Shown: piece by piece, positions 95 through 41,977 of the stretch
How positions within the stretch are numbered: position 1 is the first letter of the stretch
Layout: each line of letters opens with the position of its first letter
Assembly: GCA_002633005.1 (NCBI GenBank)
Contig: NMRA01000266.1
Span: forward strand, 12,544 to 76,543
Source: Phoronis australis
Taxonomy: Eukaryota > Animalia > Phoronida
Direction: 5' to 3'
Length of the DNA stretch: 64,000 bases
The notes under the pieces: generated by a model
Seen by the model: the letters and a program-made list of their open reading frames with translations, nothing else
What the model was told of the DNA's origin: nothing
Databases searched by the model: none
Translations under genes and position numbers: made by a program

Positions 95-322
95 TTGGGA
101 CACTCAACTCTTTTACAACGTGGTAATTCGTCATAACGTAGGTGGGGCCTACTCGGAACCCAGACCCCAGTCCAATTCCATTCGACCTTGCAATTAACAC
201 AACTGACGGGAGGATATTCGCAAAAGACTGGAGTAAGTGCGCGGACATCAACTTCTTATTGAGATCATGGAACAGTGTTGAGTTCGCAGACTGTGCAGGA
301 GGCAGTATGAGTGGAAAGAAAT
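95..322 (-). CDS. Exon: N-terminal part of a trypsin-like (Trypsin_2/FAM111-like) serine protease domain including the catalytic His
   Basis: tttttcAG acceptor (323-324) and GTAAGT donor (89-94). Encodes ...LLQSFANILPSVVLIARSNGIGLGSGFRVGPTYVMTNYHVVKELSVP. SV..I...G(S/T)GF.VG...(M/L)TN.HVV is the chymotrypsin-fold His motif. Confidence 0.8.
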
Positions 323-3300
323 CTGAAAAACATACAATTTTGAATTAATTTTTAACAGTGTTATTAGTTATAAATCCTCATACAAATATTTTGGCTCTAT
401 TCTGGATCAACACCTTGACTTCAAAGAAAATTTGAATGAAAACGTTATCTGAAGCTTCTGGTAGAACGTTAGGGAAGATATGCTCAACATTCTGCGACAA
501 CAAGAATCTAGGATTCGAAACGTTTAATTCGTGAGTGGCACCGATTTTAGATTACGGGTCATCTGTTTGGGGTTACAAAAATTATGGTTATGATGAAAAT
601 ATTCAAAACTGAGTTATGCGTTTTCATCTAGGGGTCAACCGATTTACAGCCACTCATGCTGTTAGTGGCGATGGGGGCTGGGACTCCACCGGAAATAGTC
701 TTGAATTGAATATGTTGCGTCTTTGGAACAAACTAGTGGCCACAGGTGATGACAGGTTACTAAAGAAGGTATTTCTATTGGACTATTCTGTTGGTACAAA
801 TGGTTGGATAGACGGCATAACTGGCATGCAAGCCCGTTTTCAAAATGTTACTACTTGTAACATAGTAGATGCTAAAAACAAACTATTTGAATACTCGAAA
901 CATGTTTGGGCTGAGTCCGTTGTACCAGAACCCCAGTTGAGAACCTACATTTTTATTTAAGCACGAGTTTTTAACTGAACAGTATGTGAACCTTAATTCA
1001 TCTCGTTCCGAGCGATCTCTTTTGGCTCAGTTTAGAGCAGGAAATCTCCCACTGCGCTAGGAAACTGGTCGTTATGTAAACACACCTGTAAGACTTTGCC
1101 TGTGTTGTGATTCTAGTTCTATCAAGGATGAGCTACATTTTGTGTTTGCTTGTTCTCTTTATAACTCGCGGAGGACTGATCTTTTTCATAATGTTTCACT
1201 CCAAGTCCCGAACTTTACAGATTTCAGGTTAGATACGTTAAAACTGCTGTTTCAGTTTTTCCCTAGGTAGTTTTCCAAATATATCAAGTCTGCTTTTGAA
1301 ATTATAAACCGTCGCATTTACGATAAATCTGAGTAGTGTGGTTAAAGTGACTAATAAGCCCAACTGGACAGGGTACTAATGTTTCTTACGAATGTTCTAC
1401 CTATAGCTGTTAGAATTAATTGTACTTGTCACTATAATGAATAAATACAATACAGCTAATGCCTGTGAAGTTGAATAGGGACAAGTTTATTCAAAATTTG
1501 ATACTTCCAAGATTTCCACTGAAAGTGGGAGTTAGCTATCAATTTTAAATTCTCCTTGGAACTAGTCAATTACCAGACAGCCTTGTATCCACGTCCAATA
1601 TGTACAATTCGCCGTCGTTTCCCTTTCTTACTTTCAATATGACGTCCGCCTCACCCTTGGGGATAAGTTTACCTTTTGACTTAGCAAAACCTTCCACTAC
1701 TTTACCACATTGTTTTTCAGTTGGAAAAGCACATGCTCCTAAACTATCGTCGGATGAATCCGCAGTCGTTTGTTCGGCCGCAGGCGGTGGAACTTCAATG
1801 GCAGACCCGTACTTTTGTTCCAGTTTTTTTAAATCACGTTTCAGATCCATTTGTTTCTGGAAATACAATTCGAATATCTTTTAATTCGGCTGTCTATTCT
1901 GTATTATAATAACTGTCTAAAACGCTAAAAACTGAACATCATGCTTCATAAAAATTTCCTTCTTCAATTTTTATAGGAGCCCAAAGCTTCCAAAGAAATG
2001 ACACTTGATTACTAAATAAGATCAGGCTCTACAAGCTGGCTTGTCACTGCGCGCAACTTTAGACACCGAACATGGTCTCATCGAATAACAAACAACCAGT
2101 GCCTTGCAAAATCAGAAATTGACCCTCATCTGAATAAGGAACAATTATTACATAATGTTTCCCAAATCAAAAGTTCGCCTCTTGGACTAATCAAACCCAA
2201 GTGAATCATTTGACACCATGTGGCGTGAGATCATGTTACAGTAATGCGGACAGACGATCATAGTCACGATTGTGGTATAAGTACCTGAACCATTGTTATT
2301 TGTTGTGTACCTTAAGCATAGTTTTAATTTTCTTGACCTCATCTTTGCCTGCAGAGGTAAGTTTTCCGCACACGTCGTGCGCAGTTTTTTTGTCCTGTAA
2401 ACATAGAAATACAAGAACTTACGCTGGGCCACTGCAAACACCAAGAACCAAAATAAAAATATAAGCTAGTTTGTCAAAATGTATTTAACGAGACACAGTA
2501 AAGTAAGAACAATAACGATGGCAGAATTGTTTGAATCCGTCAAATGTTGACGTGTTGGACTAAAGGGATCATTCTAAATTGAAGGTGTGCTTCACAATGG
2601 CATAAGGCAGTTATAGAGAACAGAGACTTTGCACTGCCTAGTTCATTACTTATGTACGAAGAGTAGAACAACTTCCTTTACAACTCAAGTTGAGATAAAT
2701 TGTCATCTAGGCAAATGTCAACTTTCGTGAATAGTAATCTTGCTTCATAAAATCACTTTCTGATTGTCAGTTATCAAACCATGCAGTCATACCGTTTTCG
2801 GATTCCTCTAGGAATTAAAAAGAACCGAGCTTTAACATCCCGACTGAAAATTTGTGAAAAGTGTATTTGCAATTTTTCAAAACAATAAAGAACGGACGAG
2901 TGTACCATTTGTTTTTTGACCCATGTGCAGACCGCAAAGAACCTTTTATCTTCGTTACTACGTGTACTTCACACAAGGTAATACGAAAACAATCCGGTTT
3001 TCAAAAAAATGTCCTAACCCATCCTTTTAGACTACCAGCTGAGAGTTCTGTTGTATTCATCTGAGACCAGTATCTTTTTGCTCATGAACATTGAAATGAA
3101 GGTTCACAAATCTACATGGCTAAGAATCCGCCAAAACAACCAAGAAAGTTTCTCAATTTTAAGACGTCGACAGTAAAAAGGCTTAAATTAAGGAATAGAA
3201 TTTCTATTTCAGGAGTTTCCTAACAGTATTTATGAATCATATCGAGAATAGGACTTTTCAGATGGACTGAATATTTGCCATATAGCTTGTTAAGGTGACA

Positions 3301-9300: not shown

Positions 9301-12300
9301 CGTGACAATCAGATTGAAAAGGGAAGCACTCGAATAATGGTCGTAGACATATGTATATGCCAAAACAGGGTGAAGAAATCGTTGCAACAAGCAAAAGTTA
9401 TCCGACAGTGGTTTTTTTAGAACACAAGACTAGGGGTGCCGCATTATACAAATCCCTCGATTGCATTTATGCTTTTTAGCTAATGGGAAGTAGCAGGTGC
9501 CAGAAGGAAATATGCAACGTCTCGTTTCTTCTCGAGAATAAGAGAAAATAGGACTCTAGTGTATGGTGGTACGTCAATTTTGCAATACGTCGAAGACCGG
9601 GACATTTTGATGGCATACGGGATGGCGGCAAAACTTTAAAAAATTGTGACACTGCATTGTCCTTATCAGTCTAATTAGCTTGGGCGGTTCTCAAATGGAA
9701 AGCAGACAACATTAATTTGATATCCGTTAAGCGATATTAGAGTGCGAAAAATACCAATGAAATTTCTCCGTCAAAAAATTTATTAAGTCGTTGGGTGAAC
9801 ACGTGGATCCACAACCAAACAACAGTGTCATTAGTTACCTTATCGCGTACATCCACGGTGGCGTGGTTAGCCAGTAGCAACTCCACCATCTTTGTGTGAC
9901 CACGCTCAGCCGCCTGGTGCAGTGGTGTTCTGCGCACCTATATACAAGTAGTATACACTGTAAAATGGAGATGTGTGAATGAACGATCAACGTTTAGATC
10001 ACCTTAACATCGACGGGAGAAAGTGAAGATAAAGAAAGCATTACAGGCTAAGACGCTACAATACTTGTAATGATTTCAAAATATAAGTTTTACAGGTGAT
10101 CAAAAAACGTTAAAATAACCACACCACATGTTGTAGAAGACGACTGTACCATTTGTTTTTGCAAACCGCAAAGTACCTTTTATATTCGTTCCTACGATAC
10201 TCAAGGTAATAGGACAGCAACCCGTTTTTCAAAAAAACTGTCCTAAGTCATCCCTTTACATGACAAGCTGTTGTTCTACGGTTATATAATGTATTAATCT
10301 GAGACCAAGTTGTTTTTGCTAATTGACATTGGAATGAAGGTACGCAAATTTGCATGGCTAGGAATCCGACAAAGCAACCAATAATGTTTCTCAATTCCAA
10401 AAATTGATAGTAGAAAAACTTGAATTAAGTTATTGCACAGAATCATCTCCCAAAACACTCATTGTATTTGTTTATGTTTCAGGAATTTCCTAATAGTATT
10501 CATAAAACATATCGAGAATAGGACTTTTCAGACGGACTGAATATTTGCCACCTAGCTTGTTAAGGTGACACACAAACTACCCTCGATCAGCACAGGAACA
10601 GAGTATAGACATCATAACTAGCCAAACGTTCTATCATGTGACCTGATTTCAAGCCAATATCACATTGTAATTGGCTTGTTCAACTATTAGAGGCACAATA
10701 AGTACCCTATAAATCATTTCACCTGTACAGGTAAGTACAGCTGTACAAATATAATGATCCGATTTATGTATTTATTCCATACACGTTGAATCATTCGAGT
10801 GGATTACGACAATGTGATAGTGTTTTCTATGTTTACCTACCGCACAACTTCAAACGGGGACCTCTGACAGGGAAAGTTCAAAAGGTAAGACAAGTCGATT
10901 CGACGTCGTTAGCCGGTTCGATCATCAAAATTTCCAAAAATTGTTGTAACGCATACAAAGCCCAGCAGTATAAATAACACTCAACATGCAATCACGTCCC
11001 AAACGCAACATGTTGAACACAACTGTTAATTGATTGACACTTCTATCGCAGTTTTCAATTGCTAAATATTATGGCGGTGGTAATATTGAAATCGAGAACT
11101 CTTAGCAAGCTTTTTCAACGAAGGAGGACCTATGTTATGCCTGACGCCAGCAATTGCTTTCTTGGTGTGCGTGAACTTGAATTTTGCTCAGTATGAACAC
11201 CGTGCATGCGTGAGCTTGGATTTAAATACACTTCAAAGAAATCAGGTGAATAATTTCTTCAATGTAGAGATTTTTTTAATTATTGATCCCAGGAGCACTT
11301 ATTTGTCCTGTTAACGAATTCTAGTAACGTGAACGCAATTACATGTATTTGAGTGAAGAACCCACGCTCTCTCGGCGTAGGCCCATCAACAATCTTGAGG
11401 TTAAGCGAAATCCCAAGTTCATATTCGACAGTTGCATCTTCAATTGACACTTCGTCCGGCATCCTATATATATTTTCTTAATGCACCCCACCAAAACTAA
11501 AGTCAAGCTAAGAATTTGTATTTAATTCAGTTCATTTATAAAAAATCGATGTCATGTAGAAAGACAAACATTTAGGCTTAGGTTTCGAATAAAAGCATTT
11601 GGGTGAAGATCCGTTTCATGAATTTTTTAACAAAAAGGAAACCGAAATAGTATCTTTAACTTCAATATCAAATACTGTTTGTATTAAGTTATTTCAAGGA
11701 AATGTTACAAATTATGTCTACTGAGGCAGTCTTTGACACTTAGTTTCAGTTCTATAAGCATTGGTTATGATGAGAATAATTCATTTTGAACCGATAAATT
11801 GATGTCGGCCACAAACACGTAGATATTATGCGGCCTTGCACGTGGTAATAACGGCATACATGTAATTTTTTATTCTTTTCTGACACAAGCCACTTCCAAT
11901 GCACTTCGTTTTCTGAAGGAAATCGAAAAAACGATTACCCGGCTTTACTTGCAGCTTCCTGGTTCGCTAAAATGGGAATGATACGCCACACCACAGCGAC
12001 ACACACTCGGCTGAAAAAAAAAACACTGACGTCGCTGCGTCGTGTTTTCATCTTCCTGACCGGCTAACGTGACACCTCTCCGTCGGCGAGGTGAGATCGA
12101 CCGTATACGAGGTGATGTGGATGTAGACTGGTTAAGACGACGGCTCTTCACTTCGTGTTCTAATCTTATAAAAGCCTAAAATTAGGAATCCTGCGAGCAC
12201 AGTGGTTAATCAAAAAACTCTGCGAGTGGTAAGAATTCCTTGAATTCTGTTTTGACAAAATTTGATTGTGTAACTATCAAAAATCCACGTAATACGATGG

Positions 12301-15300
12301 GTGCACTCCGCGTCTACGTCTAGCTCCGGACCGTCAGACAACAAATTCGTGGTGTAAATCATCAGACACGTACCCTTATACCCCTGCACACTTGTTGATT
12401 ACGGTATGTTTCATGGGAGCTGACAAAAAGCGAGTATGCTGGTCTGGTAAATGCGAGTTTGCTGGTATAGAGGAACGTAACTATAATTTAGTGGAGCAGC
12501 AACTGAATCGTTTCCCTCACCAAGTCATATAGGAATTGTTCTCTAAACCTACACCTATTTTAATAGGTTAAAACAGGTTAATTGAAATTTATGAAGCACA
12601 GTCTTGGTAGCTTCGAGCTAACTGTTAAAGTCAGGGCACGGCGTTGAATCATATTTCATAGTAAGTTAAATTCAATTGAAGAGCAATCAATGAATATCGT
12701 TTGATCATTGAATGAAAACCGTGTAGGAGCGGTTATTGTTGTACAGTGTTTTAATAGATTCTTTTTTATTTTGCGTTTGGTAAAACGTTAGCTAGCGTCA
12801 CGTTATTGTTAGCCAATTTCTGTCGAAGACGATCCTCTCAAATCTAGAAAAATTGGCAAATTATTTCACTGAATGTCCTCGAGCGCAGCAGATATTGCAA
12901 TATATTTTACGTTTGTAACATTTGAAAAGAAACTTGTTTGAGAAAAATAACATTGCACCAATATTCGAAACAAAGATGCCACGTCATTGTTGAATAGATG
13001 TAAACATTTGCCGATAATGCAAAAACGGGACAATCAGATTGAAAAGGGAAGCACTCGAATAATGGTCGTAGACATGTGTATATGCCAAAACAGGGTGAAG
13101 TAATCGTTGCAACAACCAAAAGTTATCCGACAGTGTTTTTTTGTAGAACACAAGACTAGGGGTGCCGCAATATACCAATCCCTCGATGGCATTTTTGCTT
13201 TTTAGCTATTGGGATGTAGCAGGTGCCAGAAGGAAGTATGCAACGTCTCGTTTCTTCTCGAGAATAAGAGAAAATAGGACTCTAGTGTGTGGTGGTACAT
13301 GTACGTCAATTTTGCAATACGTCGAAGACCGGGACATTTTGATGGCATACGGGATGGCGGCAAAAGTTTAAAAACAGTGACACTGCATTGTCCTTATCAG
13401 TCTAGTTAGCTTTGGCGGTTCTCAAATGGAAAGCAGACAACATTAAAGGCGAAGGCACCCCTTTTCCACGTCATTTTGACCTAAAATAAGGTTGGTTGGT
13501 TATCCTTGAAATATTTTCCACTTAATTACAGCTTTTCGTAATTTTATTAATTACTCGTCCGCTACTCCAGAAGTGACGTTTTAGGAGGCAAGCGTTTCCC
13601 GCCACTTGGTTTTGCGTTGACTTTACCGTGCGAATCTATTCTATTCTACTTTTGTTTTGTGCTGTTTTTCAACAATTGTCGCCACCACTTTCCATCGGCG
13701 AGTATTCTGCGGCAAGATAGGTTAGTAGAGAACTCAACTACGTTGGATTTAGNNNNNNNNNNNNNNNNNNNNNNNNNNNNNNNNNNNNNNNNNNNNNNNN
13801 NNNNNNNNNNNNNNNNNNNNNNNNNNNNNNNNNNNNNNNNNNNNNNNNNNNNNNNNNNNNNNNNNNNNNNNNNNNNNNNNNNNNNNNNNNNNNNNNNNNN
13901 NNNNNNNNNNNNNNNNNNNNNNNNNNNNNNNNNNNNNNNNNNNNNNNNNNNNNNNNNNNNNNNNNNNNNNNNNNNNNNNNNNNNNNNNNNNNNNNNNNNN
14001 NNNNNNNNNNNNNNNNNNNNNNNNNNNNNNNNNNNNNNNNNNNNNNNNNNNNNNNNNNNNNNNNNNNNNNNNNNNNNNNNNNNNNNNNNNNNNNNNNNNN
14101 NNNNNNNNNNNNNNNNNNNNNNNNNNNNNNNNNNNNNNNNNNNNNNNNNNNNNNNNNNNNNNNNNNNNNNNNNNNNNNNNNNNNNNNNNNNNNNNNNNNN
14201 NNNNNNNNNNNNNNNNNNNNNNNNNNNNNNNNNNNNNNNNNNNNNNNNNNNNNNNNNNNNNNNNNNNNNNNNNNNNNNNNNNNNNNNNNNNNNNNNNNNN
14301 NNNNNNNNNNNNNNNNNNNNNNNNNNNNNNNNNNNNNNNNNNNNNNNNNNNNNNNNNNNNNNNNNNNNNNNNNNNNNNNNNNNNNNNNNNNNNNNNNNNN
14401 NNNNNNNNNNNNNNNNNNNNNNNNNNNNNNNNNNNNNNNNNNNNNNNNNNNNNNNNNNNNNNNNNNNNNNNNNNNNNNNNNNNNNNNNNNNNNNNNNNNN
14501 NNNNTCCGGTACGCAGCAACAGTGTGGCATGTTGACTGACTAGTAAATGAAAGCAAACGACGACGGAACTTAACACAACCGAGGTAGAACAATGACTGAC
14601 TCGGCAGCTCTCACAGTCAGACTATATGAAAAGAAATTGGCGCGAAATGCTTGCCTCCTAAAACGTCACTTCCGCAGTAGCGGACGAGTAATTAATAAAA
14701 TTACGAAAAGCTGTAATTAAGTGGAAAATATGTCTAGGATAACCAACCAACCTTATTTTAGCTCAAAATGACATGGAAAAAGGTTGCCTTCGCCTTTAAT
14801 TTGATATCGTTAAGCGATATTAGAGTGTGAAAATACCAATGGAATTTCTCCCTCAACAAAGTTATTAAATCGTTGGGTGAACACCTTACTCCACAACCAA
14901 ACAGCAGAGTCATTAGTTACCTCATCGAGGACATCCACGGTGGCCTTTTTAGCCAGTAGCAACTCCACCATCTTTGTGTGACCATGCTCAGCCGCCTGGT
15001 GCAGTGGTGTTCTGCCCACCTATATACAAGTAGTATACACTGTATAATGGAGATGTGTGAATGAACGATCAACGTTTAGATCAACTTAACAACGACGGGA
15101 GAAAGTGAACATAAAGGAAGCATTACAGCTAAGACGATACAATACTTGTAATGATTTCAAAACACAAGTTTTACAGAAGATCAAAAAACGTTAAAATAAC
15201 CACACCACATGTTGTAGAAGTCGACTGTACCATTTGTTTTTGCAAACCGCAAAGTACCATTTATATTCGTTCATACGTTACTCAAGGTAATAGGACAGCA

Positions 15301-18300: not shown

Positions 18301-21300
18301 GCAGGTGCCAGAAGGAAATATGCAACGTCTCGTTTCTTCTCGAGAATAAGAGAAAATAGGACTCTAGTTTGTGGTGGTACGTCAATTTTGCAATACGTCG
18401 AAGACCGGGACATTTTGAAGGCATACGGGATGGCGGCAAAAGTTTAAAAAAGAGTGAAACTGCATTGTCCTTTTCAGTCTAGTCAGCTTGGGCGGATCTC
18501 AAATGGAAAGCAGACAACATTAATTTGATGTCGTTAAGCGATATTAGAGTGCGAAAAATACCAATGAAATTTCTCCGTCAACAAATTTATTAAATCGTTG
18601 GGTGAACACGTGGCTCCACAACCAAACAACAGTGTCATTAGTTACCTTATCGCGGACATACACGGTGGCCTTGTTAGCCAGTAGCAACTTCACCATTTTT
18701 GTGTGACCACGCTCAGCCGCCTGGTGCAGGGGTGTTCTGCGCACCTATATACAAGTAATATACACTGTAAAATGGAGATGTGTGAATGAACGATCAACGT
18801 TTAGATCAACTTAACATCGACGGGAGAATTGAACATAAAGAAAGCATTACAGGCTAAGACGCTACAATACTTGTAATGATTTCAAAATATAAGTTTTACA
18901 GGTGATCAAAAAACGTCAAAATGACCACACCACATGTTGTAGAAGTCGACTGTACCATTTGTTTTTGCGAACCGCAAAGTACCTTTTATATTCGTTCCTA
19001 CGTTACTCAAGGTCATAGGACAGCAACCCGTTTTTCAAAAAAACTGTCCTAAGTCATCCCTTTACATGACAAGCTGTTGTTCTACGGTTATATAATGTAT
19101 TAATCTGAGACCAAGTTGTTTTTGCTCCTTGACATTGGAATGAAGGTACGCAAATTTGCATGGCTAGGAATCCGACAAAGCAACCAATAATGTTTCTCAA
19201 TTCCAAAAATTGATAGAAGAAAAACTTGAATTAAGTTATTGCACCGAATCATCTCCCAAAACACTCATTGTATTTTTTTATGTTTCAGGAATTTCCTAAT
19301 AGTATTCATAAAACATATCGACATCAGGACGTTTCAGATGGACAGAAAATTTGACACCTAGCTTGTTAAGGTGACACACAAACTGCCCTTGATCAGCACC
19401 GGAACAGGGTAATAGACATCATAACTAGTCAAACGTGTTATCACGTGACCTGATTTCAAGCCACTATCACATTGTGATTGGCTTGTTCTACGATTTGAGG
19501 CACTTTAAGTACCCTATAAATCATTTCACCTGTACAGGTAAGTACAGCTGTACAAAAATAATGATCCGATTCATGTATTTATTCCATACACGTTGAATCA
19601 TTCGAGTGGATTACGGCAATGTGATAATGTTTTCTGTTTACCTACCGCACTACTTCAACAGTGACCTCTTCCAGGGAAAGTTCAAAAGGTAAGTCAAGTC
19701 GTTTCGACGCCGTAAGCCGTTTCGATCATCAAAATTTCCAAAAACTGATGTAAAGCATTACAAGCTCAGCAGTATAAGTAACACTCAACATGCAAACACG
19801 TCCCAAACGCAACATGTTGAACAAAACTGCTAATTGATTGACCCTTCTATCGCAGTTTTCAATTGCTAAATATTATAGCGGTGGTAATATTGAAATGGAG
19901 AACTCTTACCAAGCTTTTGCAACGAAGGAGGACCTATCTTATGCCTGACGCCTGCTATTGCTTGCTTGGTTTGCGTGAACTTGAATTTTGCTCAGTATGA
20001 ACACCGTACATGCGTGAGCTTGGAATTAAATACACTTCAAAGAAATCGGGTGAATAGTTTGTTCATGGTAGAGCATTTTTTAATTATCGATCCCGGGATC
20101 ACCCGTTTTAGCAGTTAACGAATTCTACTAACGTCAACTCTATTATTTCAGTGAAGAACCCACTGCCCATATACGATCTTGAGATTAAGCAAACTTCCAT
20201 CTTCATATTCGACACTTGCATCTTCAATTGACACTTCGTCCGGCATCCTATATCTTTTTTCTTAGTGCACCACACCAACAATAAAAATTAGGCTAAAATC
20301 TGTATTTAATTGGGTTCATTTTGAAAAATTCGATGTCATGTAGAAAGACTATTATTTGGGCTTAGGTTTCGAATAAAAGTGCTTGCGTAAGATCCGTTTC
20401 ACGAAGTTTTTAACAAAATTGAAGTGGTAATAGTATATTTAAGTATAAAATCAAATGTTGTTAGTATTTAACTATTTCATTGAATTTTAAAAATTGCATC
20501 TACTGAAACAGTCTTCGATACTTAGTTTCAGTTTAATAAACAGTGGTTATGATGAGAATAATTCAGTTTCAACCAAAAAATTGATCTCGGCCACAAACAC
20601 GGAGATATTCCACGGCCTCATATGTGGTAATAACGGCATACATGTACTTTACATTCTTTTATGATGCAAGCGACTACCAATGCATTTTGCGTTCCGAAGG
20701 AAAACGGAAAAACAATCGCCCTGCTTTTCTTGCAGCTTTGCTTCATGGTTTGCTAAAACGGGAATGATACGCCACACCACAGCGACACACTCTCAGCTGA
20801 AAAAACGCTGACGTCGCTGTGTCGTGTTCCCATCTTCCTGACAGAGTAACACGACACCTCTCCGTCGGCAAGGTGAGATCGACCGTATACGAGCTAGGTG
20901 ATGTGGCCTGTGAAACCTAACGATCGAACCCGTGAAGTCTTCGGCGGATGAGCTTTTGACTAACTAAGTCGGGATTGGCGCCTGGTGAGTTGCCATGTAG
21001 ACGTTTATTACTCTGCCTTCTGTTTCAAAATTAATTATTCTCATCCTAACCAATGCTTACATAAAACTGAAACAGAGTCTGTCTCATCAGATACAATTTG
21101 TAGTGCCTTTGAAGTATTGGTGAGTGCAAATGATGAGAAGCCAGCAAAAAATAAATATAGATTATTGCATGGCGAAGTTGTTATCCCTGGTTATCTAGAG
21201 CCCGAGTGGAATTTGGAGAATTATGGCCGAGGGGCGTTAGCCCCGAGGGTGATAATTCTCCAAAATCCACTAGGGCTCTATATAACGGGAATAACGAATG

Positions 21301-24300
21301 GGAACATGTAATAATCTAACACATACTGAACGAGAAAAATTGCATTGAATCGATCTACCTTTATCGACTCGCCTCGGTTTTGTAACTACTTTCTATGTCA
21401 GAGGCCCGGGATCGGAGGTCGTGACCTTTTAAGAAAAGCCGAGCTATTTTTGTCAAATAATGCTTATTCAAAGCCAATTGAAAATTTAAAACAAAATAGA
21501 AATAAAGTGAATTCATAAATTAAGGTTTAGCAACTATTATTGCTCACTACACATTTTATCACGCTAATCTTCGACCGGGAAGATATCGTCTGCAAAAAGT
21601 AGGTTACCACAAGTAACTGACTATAATGCTCAAGTCAAAGGATCTTGACGACACGACACCTGCATTCAAATTGGAGAGCGGTGATTTACAAGTGAGAGAA
21701 CACGAGAGAAAATTTTCACTGACTTAAAATATCGTTTTTATGGAAATTATACGTCTTATTACACGGTTGTATCTGCCATTCGAGTCTAATATTGTGGTAT
21801 AATTTATACCACAATATTAGCCTCGAATGGCAGATGCAACCGTGTAATAACCCATTTAGTACCGACATTTATACGCTATGAAAAATAAGACGCATAATTT
21901 CCATAAAAACGGTATTTTAATTCAGTGAATTTTTTCTCTCATGTTCTTTCACTGGGAAATAACCGATCTCCAATCTGAATGCGGGTATCGTGTCGTCGGG
22001 GTCCTTTAACTTGAGAATTATTCTCAGTTACCAGCAGACGTTCGTTTCTCGGTCGAAACTTACCGTAACAAAATGTGTTTTAAGCTACAATAGTAAACCT
22101 TAATTTATAAATTCACTTTATTTCCATTTTGTTTGAATTTTTAATTGGTTTTGAATAAAAACATTATCTGACAAAAATATCTGGGCTTTTCTTAAAAGGT
22201 CACGACCTGCAATGTTTCTCGTTTAGTATGTTGTATAAATAGATTATTACATGTTCTCAGCCGTTATCGCTTAATATTTGCCAACTAGCTTCTGAAGGTG
22301 ACACACAAAATGTCCTCGATCAACTGGGGAACAAAGTATAGACAGCTTCGCAGAAAACGTGTTATCAAGTGACCTGAGCTCCAACCACAATCGCGTAATA
22401 ATTGTTTCTTTTTCTAACGCATTATGGGCAAATTAATTCCCTTATACACTGTATATCATTTCATCTGTAGAGAAAAGTCACACTGCACTGTCTTTACTTC
22501 TATGGAGGTTATCAGATTCTCCAATCAAAAGTAGACCAGATTTAACTGACATTGTTTAGAGACAATAAATTGTGAAAAAATATCAACAAAACATGTTCCT
22601 TGACAATTTTAATCGTTTCAATCAACCAAGCAGCCTGCGTGCCATTAATTACCTTATCAAGGACATCCACGCTGGCCTTATTGGCTAGTAATAACTCTAC
22701 CATCTGCGTATGACCGCGCTCTGCTGCCCAGTGCAGCGGTGTCTGGCCATCCTAAGTAAAATATCATGGAGATATGTGAAAAGACTATCAACGTTTAGAA
22801 CTAATTAACATCCAAGAGGGAAAGAAAACTTGTAATGGGCATAAATGAAACATTACTGATCCCCTAAGGCGTTATAGTATTTGTAATGATTTCAACTCTC
22901 AAGTGTTGCAGGTGATTTTGAAACGCTGCTGTAACAAAGGAACATGCTGTAGACGTCGACTCACAGAAATTACAAACTAGTAAACGCCCCTCCATATTTT
23001 GTTTTTATACACCGGTTTACCTGCTTCCTGTTTAACATAAATTTGTCATGTGAGAGGAAGTTTATCTATGAGAATTGTAACAACGTTAAGTCGAAAAATA
23101 TATGACTGGCATAATTCAAACGTCACTGTTTCTTAAAAGGCATGTACTGGGTACACAGTGAAAAACACATGTAAAAATCACGAGAAATAAAACATCTATT
23201 TACACACAAAGTTCATAGTTAAAGTTTAGTCTAGCTCAATGAATTTCGAGAAACCAGATATCGCACGTGCTGTCCCCGGTCTGCAGAAACAATGGACAAG
23301 TCACGCTTCAAAACCACTAAGTCAAACGTCCATCTTAATTACTATCACGGAAACGTTGGAATAACATATCTGCACACAGAATTCAGATAGCTTGCAGTAT
23401 TTGTAACAAAAGTAACATTGTCTGAATTTTAAAATCGCCTCAAACAGTTCTATTACCCTGTCTCGCGCGTTTACATCGCCCCCTCTGTCCAGCAAAATCC
23501 GCAACTCCTCTGTCTCGCCCTGCTCTGCTGCCAAATGAAGTGCAGTACAACCCTGTAAAAACAAAGAACAAGCAATGCGAAACTTCACAATCACTAACTT
23601 CAGCGTTCACCTTAAGTACTACTCCCGGAATCATCGTTTGACAACAGGTAACAAGAGTTAATATTATTACAGTAGTGCAAACAGATGATCATCGTCATTA
23701 TTGTGGTAACAGGTATCAGAACCGTTGTTATTTGTTGTTTACCTGAAGTAAAACTTTTATTCTGAAGAACTTATCTTTGCTTTCAGAGCAGTATCTTCCG
23801 CAAACGTCGAACGCAGTCATTTTTTCCTGTAAAGATACATGTAGATATACATGTACGCAGTGCAATTGCAAACACGAAGAAGGAAAAAAATAAAATAAAA
23901 CAGCCTCCTTATTTTTTTGATTCATTGTGATATTTAAAATGAGGGTGACCTAATCAGTGATAGCACTGCTTTCCAAGAGGGCCCTCAACAAAAACAGTAG
24001 TATAACAGAATGGAGTATTTAAATAACAATTAAATATTCGTAACAAAGATACAGTGAAAACAGGTTGAGAATTAAGACAATAAATCAATGACAAAGAATG
24101 ATTTGCGACATAGTAAGAACAAGAACGATAGTAGAATTCTTTTTGGCGTTGGTGACATGTGAGACGCAAGGGATCTGACAAACAAATTTTATGTTTCAAA
24201 TTTACTTCAAGATGTGCTTCATTATGACATAAGACAGTTATGGAAAACGCTTAGTACAACGTTCCACAGTCAATTTCATCAGGTATGTATGCAGACTGAA

Positions 24301-27300: not shown

Positions 27301-30300
27301 ATCGACTTAAATATGCTTTGAATGTTCACAAGCGCAAAAGACATAGCAACTTTATTTTACGATGTTGTCAGAAAAGAAACTGGAATGTGAAAAATAAAAA
27401 TGCACCAATATTGATAACAAAGACACAATGTTCTTTCGATCACCAGGTGACTAGTTGTCAAAATTAGCCGACAATAGAAAAAAAACGGGACAACCGGATT
27501 GAAAGGCGAGAGACCCGTATAAAAGCTATACAACTGTGTACATACCAAAATGTACGAAATTAAAGCGCTGCAACACACAAAATTAACCCGACAGCGTTTT
27601 TCGTGGAACGGAAGACACGGGTTCCGTAACACGCAAACACTCCTGAAGGCCTCTTTACTTTTTAGCGAATGGGATGTTGCGGTTGCCGGAAGAAAACATG
27701 AAACGTATACGGGAAAATAGAACTTTGGTGCATAGTTATATATCGATTTTGCATTGTGTCAAAACCGGGACATTTTGATGGCGGCAGGAAATAAATTAAA
27801 TCTGTGACACTCCGATAAGCGCAGCTTAACTTTCGGGTACACTGTGTCGGTAAGGCAAAATATCGGATTCTTTTACAGGGCAGAAATCTCATTGCTTGTA
27901 TTTAATTCATGGGTATAGGTACATGTAAATACTGCAGACACTTGGTATCTGCTACACAGAAATCGACGCCACAAAGCTGACGCATGGCCTGAACATGAGA
28001 CGTAAAACTACATTGTTTATTCAACAAAGTATTTGCCTTGGATGAATGATCAGGGGCACTTGACGACCCTCTCGCGTAGGTTTGGGGTCTAATTAGACTT
28101 TGGTTGAAGAAAACGACCAGTTTGAACTCCGACACAGAGCCTCTTGCCTGGTATTTTGTAGCAGTTTTCAACAAGACTCCTTATTTGTACAGTATTACCA
28201 AAAATGTTGTCTCACTAATAAAAAATGCAGCCAACGGCAAAGCTAAGAGTTTGGCAAAATGCAGTCAAGCTCGTCATTCGTATTTTTTGCGCAAACACCC
28301 CTATAAACTCGAGGTCTTTCAGGTTCAAGTTGCTGAACTTCAGCAAATGTAATATTTGACCATGAAAGAACATTCCGTATAAAACATGCGGCCAGCATGG
28401 TTCCATTCACAAGTGTGATAGTGAAGGCGTCTGGTGTCACTTTTGCTCAGTTAACATTAAAATAGCGTGTGGTGCACAAATATTTATGTCACTGAAACGG
28501 GCATCCACCAATCTATTTCAAGATTACGATTTTTAGGCCAAAAGTAAAAAGACATGACCTGCCTTGTTATTAAGTAAAATAATTATTCTCCAAAGTGGGT
28601 TTTAATACAAGAAGCAGATCATTTTTGATAAAATACTCTTGCTAAATGAATAAATCCTCATACTCAATGTATCACGTGACTGTTGTTTACAAAACTGTGG
28701 AATAAGGTTTATTGCAAGAGGTCGTTATATAAAAAATACGATATTCTTGAAACAAGTGAAGGAGACGACAGCGATACGAGATTGTGTTTCCTACAACTAA
28801 ACGCAGCACGCATCAGCAAGTCAGCCTGTGAACACATTTTAAACGGTCCACACACAGACCTTGGATTTACAGTGGACCAGGAATGAAGATCACCGCTCAT
28901 TTATGGGTTTTATAACCCTCCTCTTTTTCTACGGCTTAGTACAAGCAGAGTTCTGAAACCGTGAAATAATGACCTGTTCTTTCAAACGGCTGGAGTTAGA
29001 CCAATTCACGCCCTAATTTAACCCAATTATAAATTATATAAATCAAGTGATGATGGAGTTAAAAATAAGTCACAAAGTTATGCCTACGCAACTTTGTAAG
29101 TAATCCTTGTATTAGATTAAATACGACTAAAACCTTCGTAAATGTGGTGAGAAAATTGTGTACCTGTTGCCAACCATTTATAGCGTGGTTGGTACTACTT
29201 TAGCTAATTCTCCAATATTACGATCAGACAAGCGCCTTTGGTTTACAGAGTGTTCGAGAAGTTACATGCAGTAAAGAAGTGACACTTTCTAAAAGTCCAA
29301 GCAGGAGGCAGATCATGCTTGATGATATATTTATTATAAATGAATAATTCTTCCAAATCAAGGTTCGTTTAAAACACATTTATTGCAGTGTCAGCTTAAC
29401 ACCGAGTACAACACTCTTGCGGTACCTTGTTGACAGTACTGACGTCACATCCGCTTTCCTTGCACAGCAGTTTCACTACCTCCGTATGTCCACATGCAGA
29501 TGCCACGTGCAGCGGTGTGTCACCCCTCTACAGTAATTGAACAAAAATAGATAATGTTGATCAGCATTATACATAGTGAAGTGGGTGGGTAAATAGAGCG
29601 TCCCAATTTATAGTTTTGAAGTTCACAACTTCACCATCAATTGCTACACTTATGAAGAGGGTGGCTCAACACAGCGCGACTAAAATCTGATGCTTAAACT
29701 CGGACATAACAGGAGCGGCATTCTTTATATATTCGTCTGATGTGTGCTGGAGTAACGTGGTTGAAAAGATTGACGAGTTAGCGTTATATATTACATTACA
29801 GCGGCATTCATTTAGTAAGTGGTGCGAAAATACAAGTAAAGAACCGATTCATTGTAAAACTTTGTGTGACGTGAAAATTGTTTCTAATTACTTAAAGTCG
29901 CGTGCACGTCACGTCACGTGCGGTGGAATGCAAGGGAAAATGTCAATGTTTGAAACAAAATCATAATGGTAATTTTAAATTAAATTACAGAGTGGTTCAG
30001 CCTAGTCGTGTAAGTTGCGTTCAACTAAACAACCTGTGTGTCATTACTTACATTATCATGTACATCTACACTGGCCTTGTTGACCAACACCTCCACTGTG
30101 TCTGTATGACCCTCCCCTGCTGCCCAGTACAGCGGTGTCCAGCCCACCTATGTAATATATAATGGAGATGTGTGAATGGACGATCAACGTTTAGAGCTAA
30201 TTAACACACACGGGGGAAATTGGACTTGTATGGTGACATAAATGAAACAATACTGACCCCTCTAAGACGCTACAATACTTGTAATGATTTCAAGAATCAA

Positions 30301-33300
30301 GTGCTACAGATTTTAAAACGTTACAGAACATGTTACAACTCTACGCAGCTTTGGTTCTTCACCTAGAAAAGCAGACGACATATAACTTGTCATTGTTTTA
30401 GGACATTAAAATGTGAAAAATTATCAACAAAATTTGTTCCTAAACATTTTAACTCATCTGTTTGTTAACAACTAGTTCAACTAAACAACCTGTGTGTCAT
30501 TACTTACCCTATCACGTACATCTACACTGGCCTTGTTGGCCAACATCACCTTCACTGTGTCTGTATGACCCCACCGTGCTGCCACGTGCAGCGGTGTCCA
30601 GCCCCACTATGTAATATATAATGGAGATGTGTGAATGGACGATCAACGTTTAGAGTTAATTAACATACACGGGGGAAAGTGAACTTGTCAGGTGACATAA
30701 ATGAAACATTACTGACCCCTCTAAGACGCTACAATAATTTTAATTATATCAACCGGGAAATGATAAGTTTGCAACAAAGCAACACAAGTATCAACCAGTC
30801 AGCGCGGGTTTGGCAGTTTTCGAATGGAAAGCAGACGACATTTAATTTGACATTGTTTCGAGACATTAAAATGAGAAAAATATCAAAAAACTTTGTTATT
30901 AACAGTTTTTATCATCACTTGTGTAAACAACTAGTTCAACTAAACAACCTATGTGTCATTACTTACCCACCCACCACGTACATCTACACTGGCCTTGTTG
31001 GCCAACAACACCTCCACTGTGTCTGTATGACCACGCTCTGCTGCCTCGTGCAGCGGTGTCAGGCACAACTATGTAATATATAATGGAGATGTGTGAATGG
31101 ACAATCAACGTTTAGAGCTAATTAACATACACGGGGGAAAGTGAACTTGTAAGGTGACATAAATGAAACATAACGGACCCCTCTAAGACGCTACAATATG
31201 TGTTATGAATTCAGCCCTTAAGTGTTACAGGTAATTTTAAAACGTTGCATAAACAACAGAACATGTTGTAGACGTCGACTGCAAGAAATTACAGAGCGCC
31301 TCTATAACCTCTCCATGTTGTGTTTATGCAGCAGCTTACTGTCTTCCTGTTCAAAATAAGTTGTATTATTGCATGGACGTTTAGCTTAAAGAATAGAAAG
31401 GTATCAATTTAAGTCATCAACTTAATTATTGTTGACAGGATTCAAACCTCACTGTTTCTTAAGATGCAAGTTGTACCAGGTACAAACTGATGAATACGTT
31501 TGAAAATCACGAGGAATAAAACTTGTATCTACATAGAACATATTTACTTAGGCTTCAGACAGTATACAACTTCTATAACAACGATAACATTGTCTTAATT
31601 CTAATGTCGTCTCAAGTGGTTTCTATTACCCCGTCTTGCACGTCTACATCGGCCCCACCCTGCAACAGCACCCTCACCACCTCCGTCCTGCCCTCCAATG
31701 CTGCTATGCGAAGTGCTGTGTTGCCCTGCAGAAGCAATGAACAAGTTATAGCAAACTTCACAATCGCTAACTACATCATGAATCTTAATTACTTATCACG
31801 GAAACGTTGAAAAAAAATATTAATTTGCAAATAAAATTATCAAATTTACTCTCTGTGTACCAGGTAATATATCAGTCGTGTTAGAATAGATATCAGTTTT
31901 AAAGAACAAGATTACGTCGTTCTCGTAGTACATTTATTAGTGTCAATAAGAATTCTCACCGTGAAGACATGACATATTCTTTGCAAAATATGCAGCTTTT
32001 TATCAAACTATGCACACCTGGTTGTAGCTAACACAAGCTATCATTGTTATTGGCAAAACATGTCATTGATATTCACACTTAATAATCACCTCTAAGAGAA
32101 CAATTTCGTGAGAGTAAAATGTTCAATTCTATTTTTGTTTTTAACCAGCAAAACGGGGCGAAATCAACTTGCCGGAAAATCAGTTCTTTGCAGGAAATAA
32201 GATACAATAGACGACAATATTGAAGCCAGATGCCCAAAACATGCACTTTATCGGCTATACATGAATATTGCTATTATATGGATAAAACTGTGGGTCTACC
32301 CGAAACCAATCCAAGCTGGATGTAGCAATTGAAAACCATGGTTTAAATTATGAAGTCTACATGTAGTTTCAAGCAATAGGGAAATGCCACATTTTACTTA
32401 GGCCAGAAATCATTTCTAGATTTGCAAAAGAACATGGAATAAAGATACGAGAGGACTTCAATGCACGGTTAATATGACATCGGAACGGGATAACGGGGAA
32501 TCTGGTTGTGGTGTATATTACTACATAGGAACGCAGGCACGGGATTCAAAGACTGACAAGAGGTCAATAGCATCGAAAAAAGCTAAATTTTGCAAAATGT
32601 GCTGTTAAAGACTAAACCCTTATATACACTTTGAACACATGTTAAAGGATTTTACCAAAACTTTCTTTTTCTGGTGTGTAAAGTCAATTATGCAAACGTT
32701 ACCATTCCGACGCACATCCAAACAGTTTTAAATTATTCTGTGCAGAGACTTGAAAGTACGTCTAGACAGGCGAAGAGTTGCTTTTAAAATGCAGCACTTT
32801 GACACCCAGTTTTCACATGTACACGCGATAAATTGATACACTTGCCTCTTCATTGATACAATGTTACGCATATTTAAAGAAACATTTCCTGGTCACAAGG
32901 AACTGATTAAAGATACCATGCCCATTATCAACAAAATTGTTTGCATTTTGACTTACTGACACTCGTGTTGTTCCTTTTTTACACACAGACGTTCCGAAAC
33001 TTGTGTTTTGACAATGATACCTTGTTACTGACAGTTTGAGAAAATCGGCTTCTGTGCTGCCTATTAACATTTCGTTTTAGATAGTGCTATGGGTTTAAAT
33101 TAAGTCAAATTATGAGTGTCAAAAATTCCACTGCAACGGTACGAACACAACAGCGAAAAATTCAACGAAACATTAGCCTTAATTTGATGTTCCGTCACGA
33201 CTAGCCGACTTGACATGTACTTGAAGACAACGGTTACTTGGACACAAACACATGTAGGTAAAGGAATTTCAGTAAGTACAAAATACGATGAGTAATATCA

Positions 33301-33617
33301 AAATGAACTGAACAATACCAGATAGAATAATAACATCTCTCCCTAAATCAACAATATTATGCTGTAGACTACCTTGAAACATTCATTCGTTTGAAAACTA
33401 TTATCTAAATAAAATTTATAACACGTCATTGGTAATTAATGGGAACATCCTAGTACTAACAATGAGTTGCGCTTACGGCAGTCAATCTAATGATAGAAAA
33501 AAAATCTGGAAATCAATAAATAGACGTTTCTTTGTACGTGTCACTAAAATGTTAAAAACCTGATGGATATTTGTGAAAAACGTCCCCTGATGAAAATCAA
33601 GTACTTACTCTGTCCAT
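95..33617 (-). CDS. Multi-exon gene: two tandem ankyrin-repeat domains + linker + FAM111-like trypsin-type serine protease (3' end runs off the window)
   Basis: 15 exons joined through canonical AG/GT sites give one stop-free frame of about 558 aa within the window: 33609-33617, 31630-31725, 30967-31068, 30508-30606, 30052-30147, 29426-29527, 23743-23826, 23457-23552, 22653-22751, 18646-18744, 14921-15019, 9839-9937, 2311-2394, 1574-1856, 95-322. Phases are compatible throughout (0-0 for ankyrin exons, 0-1 linker, 1-1 protease). The model is manual and has no transcript support. Confidence 0.75.
390..1450 (+). mobile_element. Decayed 3' fragment of an L2/CR1-group LINE
   Basis: Broken frames read PILDYGSSVWG, MRFHLGVNRF, RSLLAQFRAGNLPL..ETGRY, LCLCC...DELHFVFACSLY (post-RT region and C-terminal Cys/His motif). 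AATAAA near 1440. Confidence 0.7.
1574..1856 (-). CDS. Exon: linker between the ankyrin region and the protease
   Basis: ttccAG acceptor and GTAATT donor. Open frame KQMDLKRDLKKLEQKYG...LYILDVDTRLS. Phase 0-1 fits both neighbouring exons. Confidence 0.7.
2311..2394 (-). CDS. Exon: ankyrin C-cap of module 2 (DKKTAHDVCGKLTSAGKDEVKKIKTMLK)
   Basis: 84 nt, tttacAG/GTACAC. TA.D motif of terminal ankyrin repeats. Paralogous to 23743-23826, including the flanks. Confidence 0.75.
3770..3867 (+). pseudogene. First exon of a THAP-domain (P/THAP9-type) transposase remnant
   Basis: MVKDVFCKAINCMNSSTKTPDVSFFRFPKDPER followed by a GTAAGT donor. CxxxxC...FFRFP is the THAP signature. No downstream transposase exons were seen. 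Confidence 0.7.
4539..4660 (+). mobile_element. tRNA-derived SINE head
   Basis: A-box TGGTGCAGTGG and B-box GAGTTCGACC, no complete cloverleaf, followed by a non-tRNA body. Confidence 0.55.
5561..5712 (+). mobile_element. About 150-bp MITE (possibly PIF/Harbinger-like)
   Basis: Imperfect TIR CGTTCAGTAACG(T/C)TAGGACCT. Inverted copy at 63068-63219 and a fragment near 54078. Confidence 0.65.
7958..8360 (-). mobile_element. Decayed THAP-bearing (Kolobok-like) transposon fragment within the tandem unit; copies at 11718-12120, 16762-17168, 20499-20906
   Basis: Broken frames give ..FFRFPSE.EVHWKWLV..LRVCGRH (THAP). Homologous to the element at 58730-59480. Confidence 0.55.
9839..9937 (-). CDS. 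Exon: single ankyrin repeat VRRTPLHQAAERGHTKMVELLLANHATVDVRDK
   Basis: 99 nt, phase 0-0, AG/GTAACT, TPLH..A..GH..V.LLL consensus. Confidence 0.85.
13447..14795. mobile_element. Kolobok-type MITE spanning the assembly gap
   Basis: About 160-bp TIRs starting AGGCGAAGGC, TTAA TSD (13443-13446/14796-14799). Empty site GACAACATTAATTTGAT in sister units (about 9705, 18513). Confidence 0.85.
13753..14504. other. Assembly gap (N run)
   Basis: 752 Ns. Confidence 1.
14921..15019 (-). CDS. Exon: single ankyrin repeat VGRTPLHQAAEHGHTKMVELLLAKKATVDVLDE
   Basis: 99 nt, phase 0-0, canonical splice sites, ankyrin consensus. Confidence 0.85.
18646..18744 (-). CDS. Exon: single ankyrin repeat VRRTPLHQAAERGHTKMVKLLLANKATVYVRDK
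   Basis: 99 nt, phase 0-0, canonical splice sites, ankyrin consensus. Confidence 0.85.
21152..22270. repeat. Nested palindromic (foldback) element
   Basis: Hairpin 21179-21296; long inverted arms about 21290-21760 vs 21885-22270; near-perfect central hairpin 21757-21850. Confidence 0.8.
22653..22751 (-). CDS. Exon: single ankyrin repeat DGQTPLHWAAERGHTQMVELLLANKASVDVLDK
   Basis: 99 nt, ttAG/GTAATT. Absent from the ORF track; translated by hand. Confidence 0.85.
23457..23552 (-). CDS. Exon: first (N-cap type) ankyrin repeat of module 2, GCTALHLAAEQGETEELRILLDRGGDVNARDR
   Basis: 96 nt, tttacAG/GTAATA. Paralogous to 31630-31725. Confidence 0.85.
23743..23826 (-). CDS. Exon: ankyrin C-cap of module 1 (EKMTAFDVCGRYCSESKDKFFRIKVLLQ)
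   Basis: 84 nt, tttacAG/GTAAAC. Paralogous to 2311-2394. Confidence 0.75.
24650..27830 (+). mobile_element. Heavily decayed Tx1/L1-like LINE in an intron; related sequence makes up much of the 3.7-kb tandem unit
   Basis: Remnant motifs in the expected order: KYYPGDG (K.PG.DG), NW (NWRP-like), EFLW, VTLWVHP (PLW.NP-like). In the unit copies: SLNENRVG..LLY and YFTECPQAQQI (zf-RVT-like). Clear nucleotide similarity to 8400-9700 and 10300-10650. Confidence 0.5.
25040..25400 (-). mobile_element. CR1/L2-type reverse transcriptase fragment
   Basis: AQFGVLPGKSTT, AGVPQGS and VGPLLFLLFINDIP motifs across frameshifts. Confidence 0.75.
29426..29527 (-). CDS. Exon: divergent ankyrin repeat RGDTPLHVASACGHTEVVKLLCKESGCDVSTVNK
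   Basis: 102 nt, gtAG/GTACCG, ankyrin consensus. Flanks are unrelated to those of the duplicated exons. Confidence 0.8.
30052..30147 (-). CDS. Exon: ankyrin repeat VGWTPLYWAAGEGHTDTVEVLVNKASVDVHDN
   Basis: 96 nt (one codon shorter than its paralogues, frame kept), AG/GTAAGT. Confidence 0.8.
30508..30606 (-). CDS. Exon: ankyrin repeat WGWTPLHVAARWGHTDTVKVMLANKASVDVRDR
   Basis: 99 nt, AG/GTAAGT. Confidence 0.85.
30967..31068 (-). CDS. Exon: ankyrin repeat LCLTPLHEAAERGHTDTVEVLLANKASVDVRGGW
   Basis: 102 nt, AG/GTAAGT. Confidence 0.8.
31630..31725 (-). CDS. Exon: first (N-cap type) ankyrin repeat of module 1, GNTALRIAALEGRTEVVRVLLQGGADVDVQDG
   Basis: 96 nt, ctgcAG/GTAATA, ankyrin consensus. 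Confidence 0.8.
33609..33617 (-). CDS. Putative initiation exon (Met-Asp-Arg)
   Basis: aaaATG GAC AGA|GTAAGT: A-rich start context and a consensus phase-0 donor; gives MDR-GNTAL. Only 9 coding nt, so tentative. Confidence 0.45.
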
Positions 33618-33661
33618 TTTAATAGTTTTGAGAAACAATTCTTGGGTTAGCAATACATCAG

Positions 33662-41970: not shown

Positions 41971-41977
41971 ATTTAAG

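Follow-up and report, generated by a model that had tools for sequence, protein, structure and literature searches.

The window, meaning the whole 64,000-nucleotide stretch of Phoronis australis DNA analysed here, carries on its minus strand 15 exons, all bounded by AG and GT, that can be joined into a chain of 1576 nt (525 codons) without a stop, as the initial annotation had claimed. The chain comprises a candidate start exon, two stacks totalling 10 ankyrin exons, a pair of cap-like exons, a linker, and an exon that opens a trypsin-fold domain. From right to left, these exons and one inserted element are:

33609..33617, minus strand: candidate first coding exon (MDR), ATG with AGA/GTAAGT donor, phase 0
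31630..31725, minus strand: ankyrin exon A, first repeat of stack 1, 96 nt (Pfam Ank, E 8.7e-9)
30967..31068, minus strand: ankyrin exon B, 102 nt, 460-bp unit 1 (Pfam Ank; acceptor confirmed by reads)
30508..30606, minus strand: ankyrin exon C, 99 nt, 460-bp unit 2 (Pfam Ank, E 5e-11)
30052..30147, minus strand: ankyrin exon D, 96 nt, one codon shorter, 460-bp unit 3 (Pfam Ank, E 7e-9)
29426..29527, minus strand: ankyrin exon E, 102 nt (Pfam Ank, E 1.7e-10)
23743..23826, minus strand: cap-like exon C1, 84 nt, homologous to C2 (72% with flanks)
23457..23552, minus strand: ankyrin exon A2, first repeat of stack 2 (Pfam Ank)
22653..22751, minus strand: ankyrin exon B2, 99 nt (Pfam Ank, E 3.7e-12)
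18646..18744, minus strand: ankyrin exon V1, in a 3.7-kb unit (Pfam Ank; V1-V2 joint in reads)
14921..15019, minus strand: ankyrin exon V2, in a 3.7-kb unit (Pfam Ank; V1-V2 joint in reads)
13442..14800, no strand: inverted-repeat element in the V2-V3 intron, 172-bp inverted ends, holding a 752-N gap
9839..9937, minus strand: ankyrin exon V3, in a 3.7-kb unit (Pfam Ank, E 6e-10)
2311..2394, minus strand: cap-like exon C2, 84 nt, homologous to C1, without a Pfam match
1673..1856, minus strand: linker exon, 184 nt, phase 0 in and phase 1 out
95..322, minus strand: first exon of a trypsin-fold (S1) domain (Pfam Trypsin_2; HtrA-type matches)

Phases ran from 0 to 0 through the stacks and from 0 to 1 across the linker, with phase 1 entering the protease exon, and every exon retained its frame and splice sites. 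For 14 random AG-started segments of these lengths, the product of the open fractions was 2e-13, which is only a rough control since the exons were chosen partly for being open. Two long introns, of 5.6 kb and 7.4 kb, interrupt the chain. The candidate MDR exon lies in a bin of low read depth, has three rival in-phase ATG..GT candidates, and shows no joint among those listed. Neither a signal peptide nor a membrane helix was found in the 525-codon translation that begins with this candidate, in line with the earlier suggestion that no signal peptide precedes the first repeat if MDR is the true start. Elsewhere in the window, a homologue search with the ORF at 57836-58345 matched none of 73 candidates.

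Each 33-residue repeat occupies one exon; the ankyrin exons are 96-102 nt long, and both they and the cap exons are phase 0. The profile check proposed in the initial annotation placed all 10 ankyrin exons above the Pfam Ank (PF00023) gathering score of 21.1 bits, and a profile built from them found no eleventh repeat in the six frames of the window. The description of two capped domains, each with an N-cap, four internal repeats, and a C-cap, held for the two stacks and their 10 Pfam repeats but not for the caps or the symmetry. The first repeats, A and A2, are ordinary full Pfam ankyrin repeats rather than N-caps; the 28-aa C-terminal exons of both stacks gave no Pfam ankyrin match and are called cap-like solely on their TA-x-D start and position; and the stacks are not equivalent, exon E ending stack 1 with no counterpart in stack 2. 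Exon E has a weak donor, and read-through leads to a stop after 9 codons, with AATAAA at 29384, while read-through of C1 or C2 reaches a stop 4 codons later. We counted these stops, all within 4-9 codons, against a fusion to the protease, together with the existence of transcripts that extend beyond E. The ankyrin profile matched 6874 of 7996 candidate proteins, and the 120 matches listed were generic long ankyrin proteins, none with the domain order of this gene.

Local duplication had been invoked for the multiplication of the internal repeats, and unit identities resolved it into three rounds: the whole stack (~70%), the 460-bp units (~85%), and the 3.7-kb units (~91%), the last differing by 7-13%. 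An old duplication junction at 23630/23633 fuses the downstream intron of C1 to the upstream intron of A; stack 2 therefore lacks a start exon of its own, and the C2 intron is the original onward route. Two sister 3.7-kb units have empty sites where the V2-V3 intron carries the inverted-repeat element. A hidden extra repeat in the N gap was rejected because the gap falls inside this inserted element.

The linker exon has no Pfam match. Its acceptor, 454 nt past C2, is well formed and in the matching phase; codon three is an ATG, and alternative donors at 1706 and 1655 would preserve phase. The stop-free chain of 15 exons with matching phases was counted for a sensor-protease fusion, and judged by these sequence features the stacks are likely spliced via the linker to the trypsin-fold domain in one transcript.

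Exon 95-322 contains the GSGFRVG..MTNYHVV motif on which a trypsin-like start had been proposed, with SVV..GSG..MTNYH strands and a predicted catalytic His that aligns with the HtrA TNYH. It matched positions 1-23 of Pfam Trypsin_2 at E 0.0018 (19.5 bits, below the 27.6 cut-off), and its atlas neighbours carried Trypsin or Trypsin_2 on 10-39% of members. The exon likely starts an S1/clan PA trypsin-fold protease domain, the His motif being the one basis for predicting catalysis; this His is the sole triad residue inside the window, later protease exons lying to its left. A single-sequence model of low confidence (mean pLDDT 64, pTM 0.31) placed a helix at residues 11-46; it was all helix and failed to form the predicted strands. 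Against 5.8 billion proteins, considering longer targets only, 0 of 171 candidates matched at E<=10. The single match among 1.84 billion representatives, P0001, was dismissed as chance, being a low-complexity tandem repeat without a protease motif. The GSG..MTNYHVV motif matched 22 metagenome loci, and all nine that were translated were HtrA-type; the best match reached 49% over exon residues 26-70, a short motif whose E-values are relative to the candidates. A PDB profile search returned HtrA/DegP in all 60 rows listed of 113, with a profile that was three-quarters HtrA and cannot rank subfamilies. The Nal1 family was not among the two Pfam matches at E<=1 obtained with the exon fragment as query.

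The FAM111-like label given to this domain was not sustained. The exon matched generic Trypsin_2/HtrA motifs alone, and phmmer of its 75 residues against the PDB at E<=10, a search in which no invertebrate FAM111 was compared, returned three weak matches (RsgI9, SplE, and a proline-rich peptide) and no human FAM111A chain. FAM111A, FAM111B, and invertebrate FAM111A-like proteins (MEROPS S1, PF13365, PDB 8S9K) share with this gene a predicted intracellular C-terminal trypsin fold and a Trypsin_2 match. The long helix that the low-confidence model places before the first strand may correspond to the dimerisation helix of FAM111A, which is described as lying just before the first strand (PMC10920703). 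Coral and lancelet FAM111A-like proteins lack UBL domains (PMC9798293). In contrast to the PIP-UBL-UBL arrangement of FAM111, whose two UBL domains are a vertebrate trait and whose PIP box is a mammalian one, the N-terminal part here consists of 10 ankyrin repeats and a linker; Pfam search of the exons found no UBL or PIP part in the chain, and the word "ankyrin" does not occur in that FAM111 review (PMC9798293). HtrA/DegP proteases (S1C) share the short GSG..MTNYHVV motif but have no ankyrin sensor, and no PDZ domain, signal, or membrane anchor accompanies the motif in the window.

RNA reads provided evidence for the window beyond 14,600, that is, to the right of V3, C2, the linker, and the protease exon. 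A search of sequencing runs with 90-2420 listed no RNA run, a result that is neutral as to expression of that part. Stranded depth in bin 30368-31024 was 32.2 versus 0.58, indicating minus-strand expression. The initial annotation had called for RNA confirmation of exon joining, and within the covered part this was obtained for two of the 14 introns, with exact joints between A and B (10+5 reads) and between V1 and V2 (11+8 reads) among the 15 of 92 joints listed; E-C1-A2 joints were absent among those 15. Exon A2 was covered by reads with no other difference 5x in X1, 10x in X2, and 0 in X3, and sample X3 had almost no reads on A2, V1, and V2. An X4 contig sits on 23742-23828, at cap-like exon C1. 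Minus-strand depth beyond E was 26 in X1 and 18 in X2, with reads extending to about 28400; these reads bear 7-10 other differences and were therefore assigned to related copies. Related transcripts ending after the first stack exist. Among the 12 of 125 between-joint rows listed, 11 were ankyrin junctions of X4 contigs, all in frame when decoded by hand; the seven repeat-to-repeat junctions were all distinct from each other and from the window at hairpin positions, with Gly kept. The gene is expressed and belongs to a multi-copy family with variable binding-surface residues, which agrees with the proposal that the binding module diversifies by repeat-exon turnover.

Repeats B, C, and D differ by 20 non-synonymous and two synonymous changes. 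Twelve of the 20 amino-acid-changing substitutions fall at six DARPin library positions (6 of 32 codons; P=5e-5), while the overall N:S excess was not significant (P=0.068). pN was 0.59 at seven surface codons, of which position 8 was chosen post hoc, versus 0.064 in the framework. The two flanking introns diverge by 16% (58/354), so that surface codons lie far above the introns and framework codons below them; exons and whole introns were alike in identity (87% versus 84%, P=0.53). An earlier view that the introns are much better conserved than the B/C/D exons was dropped, since this is true just for the 100 nt upstream (94-97%) and whole introns reach 84%. Excess change at binding-face codons thus holds in stack 1 repeats B/C/D. 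The youngest repeats, V1-V3, showed no surface bias (three of nine changes at library positions, P=0.21).

DARPins were derived from natural ankyrin stacks, and "natural DARPin", the name given to this module by the initial annotation, is to that extent a mere label; what stands is that stack 1 varies at library positions. DARPins have 33-residue repeats with a near-constant framework and variable library positions (PMC3602593, PMC8683736), and the repeats here are likewise 33 residues long and vary at those positions, as shown for B/C/D. Unlike this gene, DARPins are artificial binders without an enzyme, and its first repeats are ordinary rather than designed N-caps. In brown algae, the LRR-ROCO (and NB-ARC-TPR) proteins regarded as candidate immune receptors have one repeat per equal-phase exon, undergo exon shuffling and alternative splicing, and carry positively selected concave-face sites (PMC11378527). 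The exon-per-repeat mode is the same here, with ankyrin in place of LRR, a protease in place of ROC-COR, and another lineage. Immune architectures that pair repeats with an effector are widespread in marine invertebrates, and in lineage-specific expansions ankyrin repeats have been suggested to sense invaders while linked to variable effectors (PMC8195603). Such ankyrin-sensor expansions feature TRADD-N or Death-fold domains, both absent from this gene, and across the 12 passages covered, of 13 in that source, trypsin effectors appear for bacterial systems alone (PMC8195603).

We counted the repeat-effector immune architectures (PMC8195603) and the algal exon mode (PMC11378527) in favour of a sensor-protease, and we tentatively propose, at slightly under even confidence, that the gene is a diversifying ankyrin sensor likely fused to an intracellular S1 protease and probably immune. 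An ancestral gene with one stack and a protease would have gained its second stack by the old internal duplication, and phase-0 exons would permit repeats to be gained, lost, or skipped with the frame intact. The concave faces may recognise a shifting target, probably a protein of a parasite or virus, which could be delivered to the protease, or the protease could be switched on by clustering or release of autoinhibition; ankyrin-only relatives might serve as adaptors or decoys. A more ambitious form of this proposal, which we consider somewhat unlikely, holds that an animal lineage maintains many intracellular ankyrin binders that diversify rapidly, vary at DARPin library positions, and are rearranged by exon, and that these are coupled directly to an active trypsin-fold protease. 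They would then form an undescribed family of cytosolic immune receptors able to cleave whatever they bind, or to send a proteolytic signal, with no NTPase or Death-fold switch involved. Provided that stacks and protease are spliced together and the triad is intact, the design would link a variable binder directly to a protease, dispensing with an intervening NLR-type NTPase; it would add a testable class of invertebrate intracellular immune proteins, be an instance of natural selection acting on DARPin library positions, and serve as a natural template for engineering target-directed proteases. Without the fusion, the gene would simply represent a lineage-specific ankyrin family, ordinary though fast in its evolution.

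A rival reading is that of separate transcripts: short ankyrin-only proteins would end at E or at one of the caps, whereas the exons for linker and protease would start another gene or be rarely joined. The weak E donor with its nearby stop and AATAAA, the depth beyond E in X1 and X2, the early stops of both cap exons, the linker ATG, and the two long introns all fit this arrangement. The reads past E come from related copies, however, transcription covers A2 although stack 2 lacks its own start exon, and the linker acceptor past C2 fits in phase, and we regard separate transcripts as quite unlikely. We consider it highly improbable that stack 2 and the 3.7-kb units arose through misassembly or represent a duplicate in decay. 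Although the array contains the 752-N gap and X3 has nearly no reads on A2, V1, and V2, the units differ by 7-13%, the gap lies inside an insertion whose sister sites are empty, V1-V2 is spliced in 19 reads, and all exons have intact frames and splice sites.

The fusion could also be real and unrelated to defence, with the stacks acting as a substrate or localisation adaptor of a housekeeping or developmental protease, or as a scaffold with a dead protease, and with repeat number shifting by unequal crossing-over under little selection. Duplication of repeat exons in phase 0 is tolerated regardless of what they do, the V1-V3 changes are evenly spread, exons and introns diverge alike, and the catalytic Asp and Ser would lie beyond the window. 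This account, which we judge unlikely, sits poorly with B/C/D surface codons far above intron divergence while the framework is below it, and with different hairpin variants at all seven listed repeat-to-repeat junctions.

The initial annotation did not recognise the architecture as a described family. We likewise found no published account of an animal protein that joins ankyrin repeats to an intracellular trypsin-fold protease, in a literature whose supplements (notably the PMC8195603 source data) could hold such architectures; the exon-shuffled mode itself is described for the algal ROCO candidate receptors. A nematode "Kallikrein-4" from Aphelenchoides bicaudatus, P0019, shows no similarity to the protease exon of the window and differs in having an N-terminal, classical PF00089 protease with 27 repeats behind it. 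It is the sole trypsin-domain protein among the 120 ankyrin matches listed and, like the gene described here, is predicted to combine a trypsin domain and an ankyrin array in one protein.

A motif scan of the 64-kb window picked out ten ankyrin-like frames, which lie between 9,839 and 31,725 and are all read from the minus strand. The layout is one exon per repeat: each of the ten exons is 96-102 nt long, in phase 0, and bounded by an AG acceptor and a GT donor. A profile made from the ten exons found no further repeat in the window. They form two stacks (A to E, and A2, B2 and V1 to V3), followed by the remaining exons of the chain:

23826-23743, minus strand: cap-like exon C1, 84 nt, closing stack 1; homologous to C2 by self-comparison
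2394-2311, minus strand: cap-like exon C2, 84 nt, closing stack 2; homologous to C1 by self-comparison
1856-1673, minus strand: linker exon, 184 nt, downstream of C2; phase 0 in, phase 1 out
322-95, minus strand: protease exon, 228 nt, after the linker exon; GSGFRVG..MTNYHVV motif

With the proposed first coding exon (MDR exon, one of four in-phase start candidates), 15 exons gave 525 codons with no stop, which upholds the single stop-free chain of the initial annotation. Its statement that no signal peptide is present if MDR is the start also held, as this chain has no hydrophobic N-terminus; peak 19-residue hydropathy (1.4) lay in the protease strands. A degenerate copy of the surroundings of the proposed first exon (33710-33609), lacking the ATG, lies at 31850-31930 (minus strand), 130 nt upstream of exon A.

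Self-comparison of the window resolved three layers of duplication. In an old one, the entire A-to-cap block was copied (~70% identity), and at the junction (23630/23633) the intron downstream of C1 continues as the intron upstream of A, leaving stack 2 without its own start exon. Units of 460 bp surround B, C, and D (85% identity) and units of 3.7 kb surround V1, V2, and V3 (87-93%); the repeats turn over by local duplication, as had been proposed. A 752-N gap is unlikely to conceal a repeat, since it lies inside an inserted element with 172-bp inverted ends whose site is empty in two sister 3.7-kb units.

We take the variable library positions of designed ankyrin repeat proteins (DARPins) to correspond to repeat positions 1, 3, 11, 12, 31, and 33. 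Residue numbers in PMC3602593 agree with five of these six. In a selection test that is limited because each set has three sequences and gene conversion may have acted, 12 of the 20 non-synonymous changes among B, C, and D fell in these six of 32 codons (P=5e-5), with two synonymous changes in total (deficit P=0.068). Across seven surface codons, made up of the six and position 8 (included after inspection), pairwise pN was 0.59, compared to 0.064 in the framework. The two introns among these units differed at 58 of 354 sites, placing the surface above and the framework below intron divergence. The pattern was absent from V1-V3 (nine non-synonymous and three synonymous changes; 3/9 at the six positions, P=0.21).

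Reads from four RNA runs sharing one species label (X1-X4), placed on 14,600-34,300, showed that the repeats are expressed. First mates over exons mapped to the plus strand (depth 32.2, against 0.58 on the other strand; X1, bin 30368-31024), a pattern that reflects minus-strand RNA in most stranded libraries. Among the 15 of 92 splice joints on which these results rest, two were exact model joints, A-B (10+5 reads) and V1-V2 (11+8 reads); others, C-like to E-like or C-like to C-like, represent exon skipping, alleles, or related copies of the gene. Exon A2 was covered 5x in X1 and 10x in X2 by reads sharing one variant and otherwise identical to the window. X3 barely covered A2, V1, and V2, unlike X1 and X2 from the same study; this shortage over 14921-23552 may reflect either regulation by tissue or a stack 2 that is present in some individuals and absent in others.

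Reads also continued past exon E to ~28,400 (depth 26 in X1, 18 in X2) with 7-10 other differences, from which we infer that related genes terminate after E as ankyrin-only proteins. At this locus, which may end the same way, exon E has a weak donor, read-through meets a stop after nine codons, and an AATAAA lies at 29384. Among 12 of the 125 between-joint rows, 11 were ankyrin junctions in X4 contigs, all keeping the reading frame when decoded by hand. The hairpin varies across the family: no two of the seven repeat-to-repeat junctions had the same residues at repeat positions 33, 1, and 3 around a constant Gly, and none matched the window's own. Paralogues, alleles, or a pool of individuals could account for these variants.

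Pfam bore out the ankyrin part of the proposed chain, with 10/10 exons above the Ank cut-off. For the protease exon, Trypsin_2 (E 0.0018) fell below cut-off and Trypsin gave E 0.14. Atlas neighbours of the protease exon were short Trypsin/Trypsin_2 fragments. Its 22 metagenome matches were at motif level; the nine translated were bacterial HtrA-type proteins, the best of these nine with 49% across protease-exon residues 26-70. No relatives were found in large protein databases. Trypsin-fold domain of Trypsin_2 type is a fair label, with His present and any catalytic Asp and Ser lying outside the window. A PDB phmmer search with this exon did not recover FAM111A, although a structure, 8S9K, is deposited (PMC10920703). 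A FAM111 review (PMC9798293) describes FAM111A-like proteins of invertebrates as devoid of UBLs and names HtrA/Deg as the closest homologues in structure, so kinship is possible. A low-confidence model predicts a long helix ahead of the protease strands, where FAM111A carries its dimerisation helix; we treat this as a lead only. The gene is not assigned to FAM111.

DNA anatomy suggests that both stacks and the protease are probably on one transcript, which would splice them together. The concave ankyrin faces would bind changing targets, and binding could carry substrate to the protease or activate it through clustering; ankyrin-only relatives might serve as adaptors or decoys, in a setting of defence. 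This whole reading, a variable ankyrin sensor joined to a protease in defence, is plausible but tentative. A non-immune adaptor role for the ankyrin part, or a dead protease, is rather unlikely. Separate ankyrin and protease transcripts are unlikely. Artefact or decay is highly improbable.

The gene resembles brown algal LRR-ROCO candidate receptors (PMC11378527) in having one repeat per exon and a variable concave face; likewise, it fits the marine-invertebrate repeat-sensor-plus-effector theme (PMC8195603). It is a member of neither. The literature searched described no animal protein with ankyrin repeats and an intracellular trypsin. Among the 120 ankyrin matches listed, one had a trypsin domain, nematode 'Kallikrein-4' (P0019), in reverse order and of another trypsin type (a classical N-terminal domain, then 27 ankyrin repeats); it may be a gene-model fusion.

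The window as a whole is intron-rich and 38% GC across its 64 kb, probably comes from an invertebrate animal, and carries transposases of piggyBac type, part of a LINE, and an exon encoding a THAP domain:

3770-3867, plus strand: first exon encoding a THAP domain (Pfam THAP E 0.00055; GTAAGT donor), lying antisense within the V3-C2 intron and probably belonging to a nested gene or to a P-element-like transposon
13442-14800: high-copy inverted-repeat element inserted at ATTAAT, ends starting AGG after TTAA, containing the assembly gap; a candidate Kolobok-like transposon
42642-43688, plus strand: piggyBac-type transposase frame (Pfam DDE_Tnp_1_7 E 1e-71)
51382-53097, minus strand: piggyBac-type transposase frame (Pfam DDE_Tnp_1_7 E 3e-71)
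56145-56228, minus strand: exon-like segment, 84 nt, phase 0, GWDVN motif, no Pfam match; looks like an initial ankyrin-type repeat from an adjacent gene
57833-58393, minus strand: open frame of 186 codons, no Pfam family; no homologue among 73 candidates
61457-62089, plus strand: LINE fragment (Pfam zf-RVT E 2.7e-8)

The transposase at 42642-43688 sits between the two copies of a 2.6-kb direct duplication (39424-41978 and 45360-47890, 91%). By eye, a tRNA-like stretch at 4533-4600 (plus strand) is probably a SINE head.
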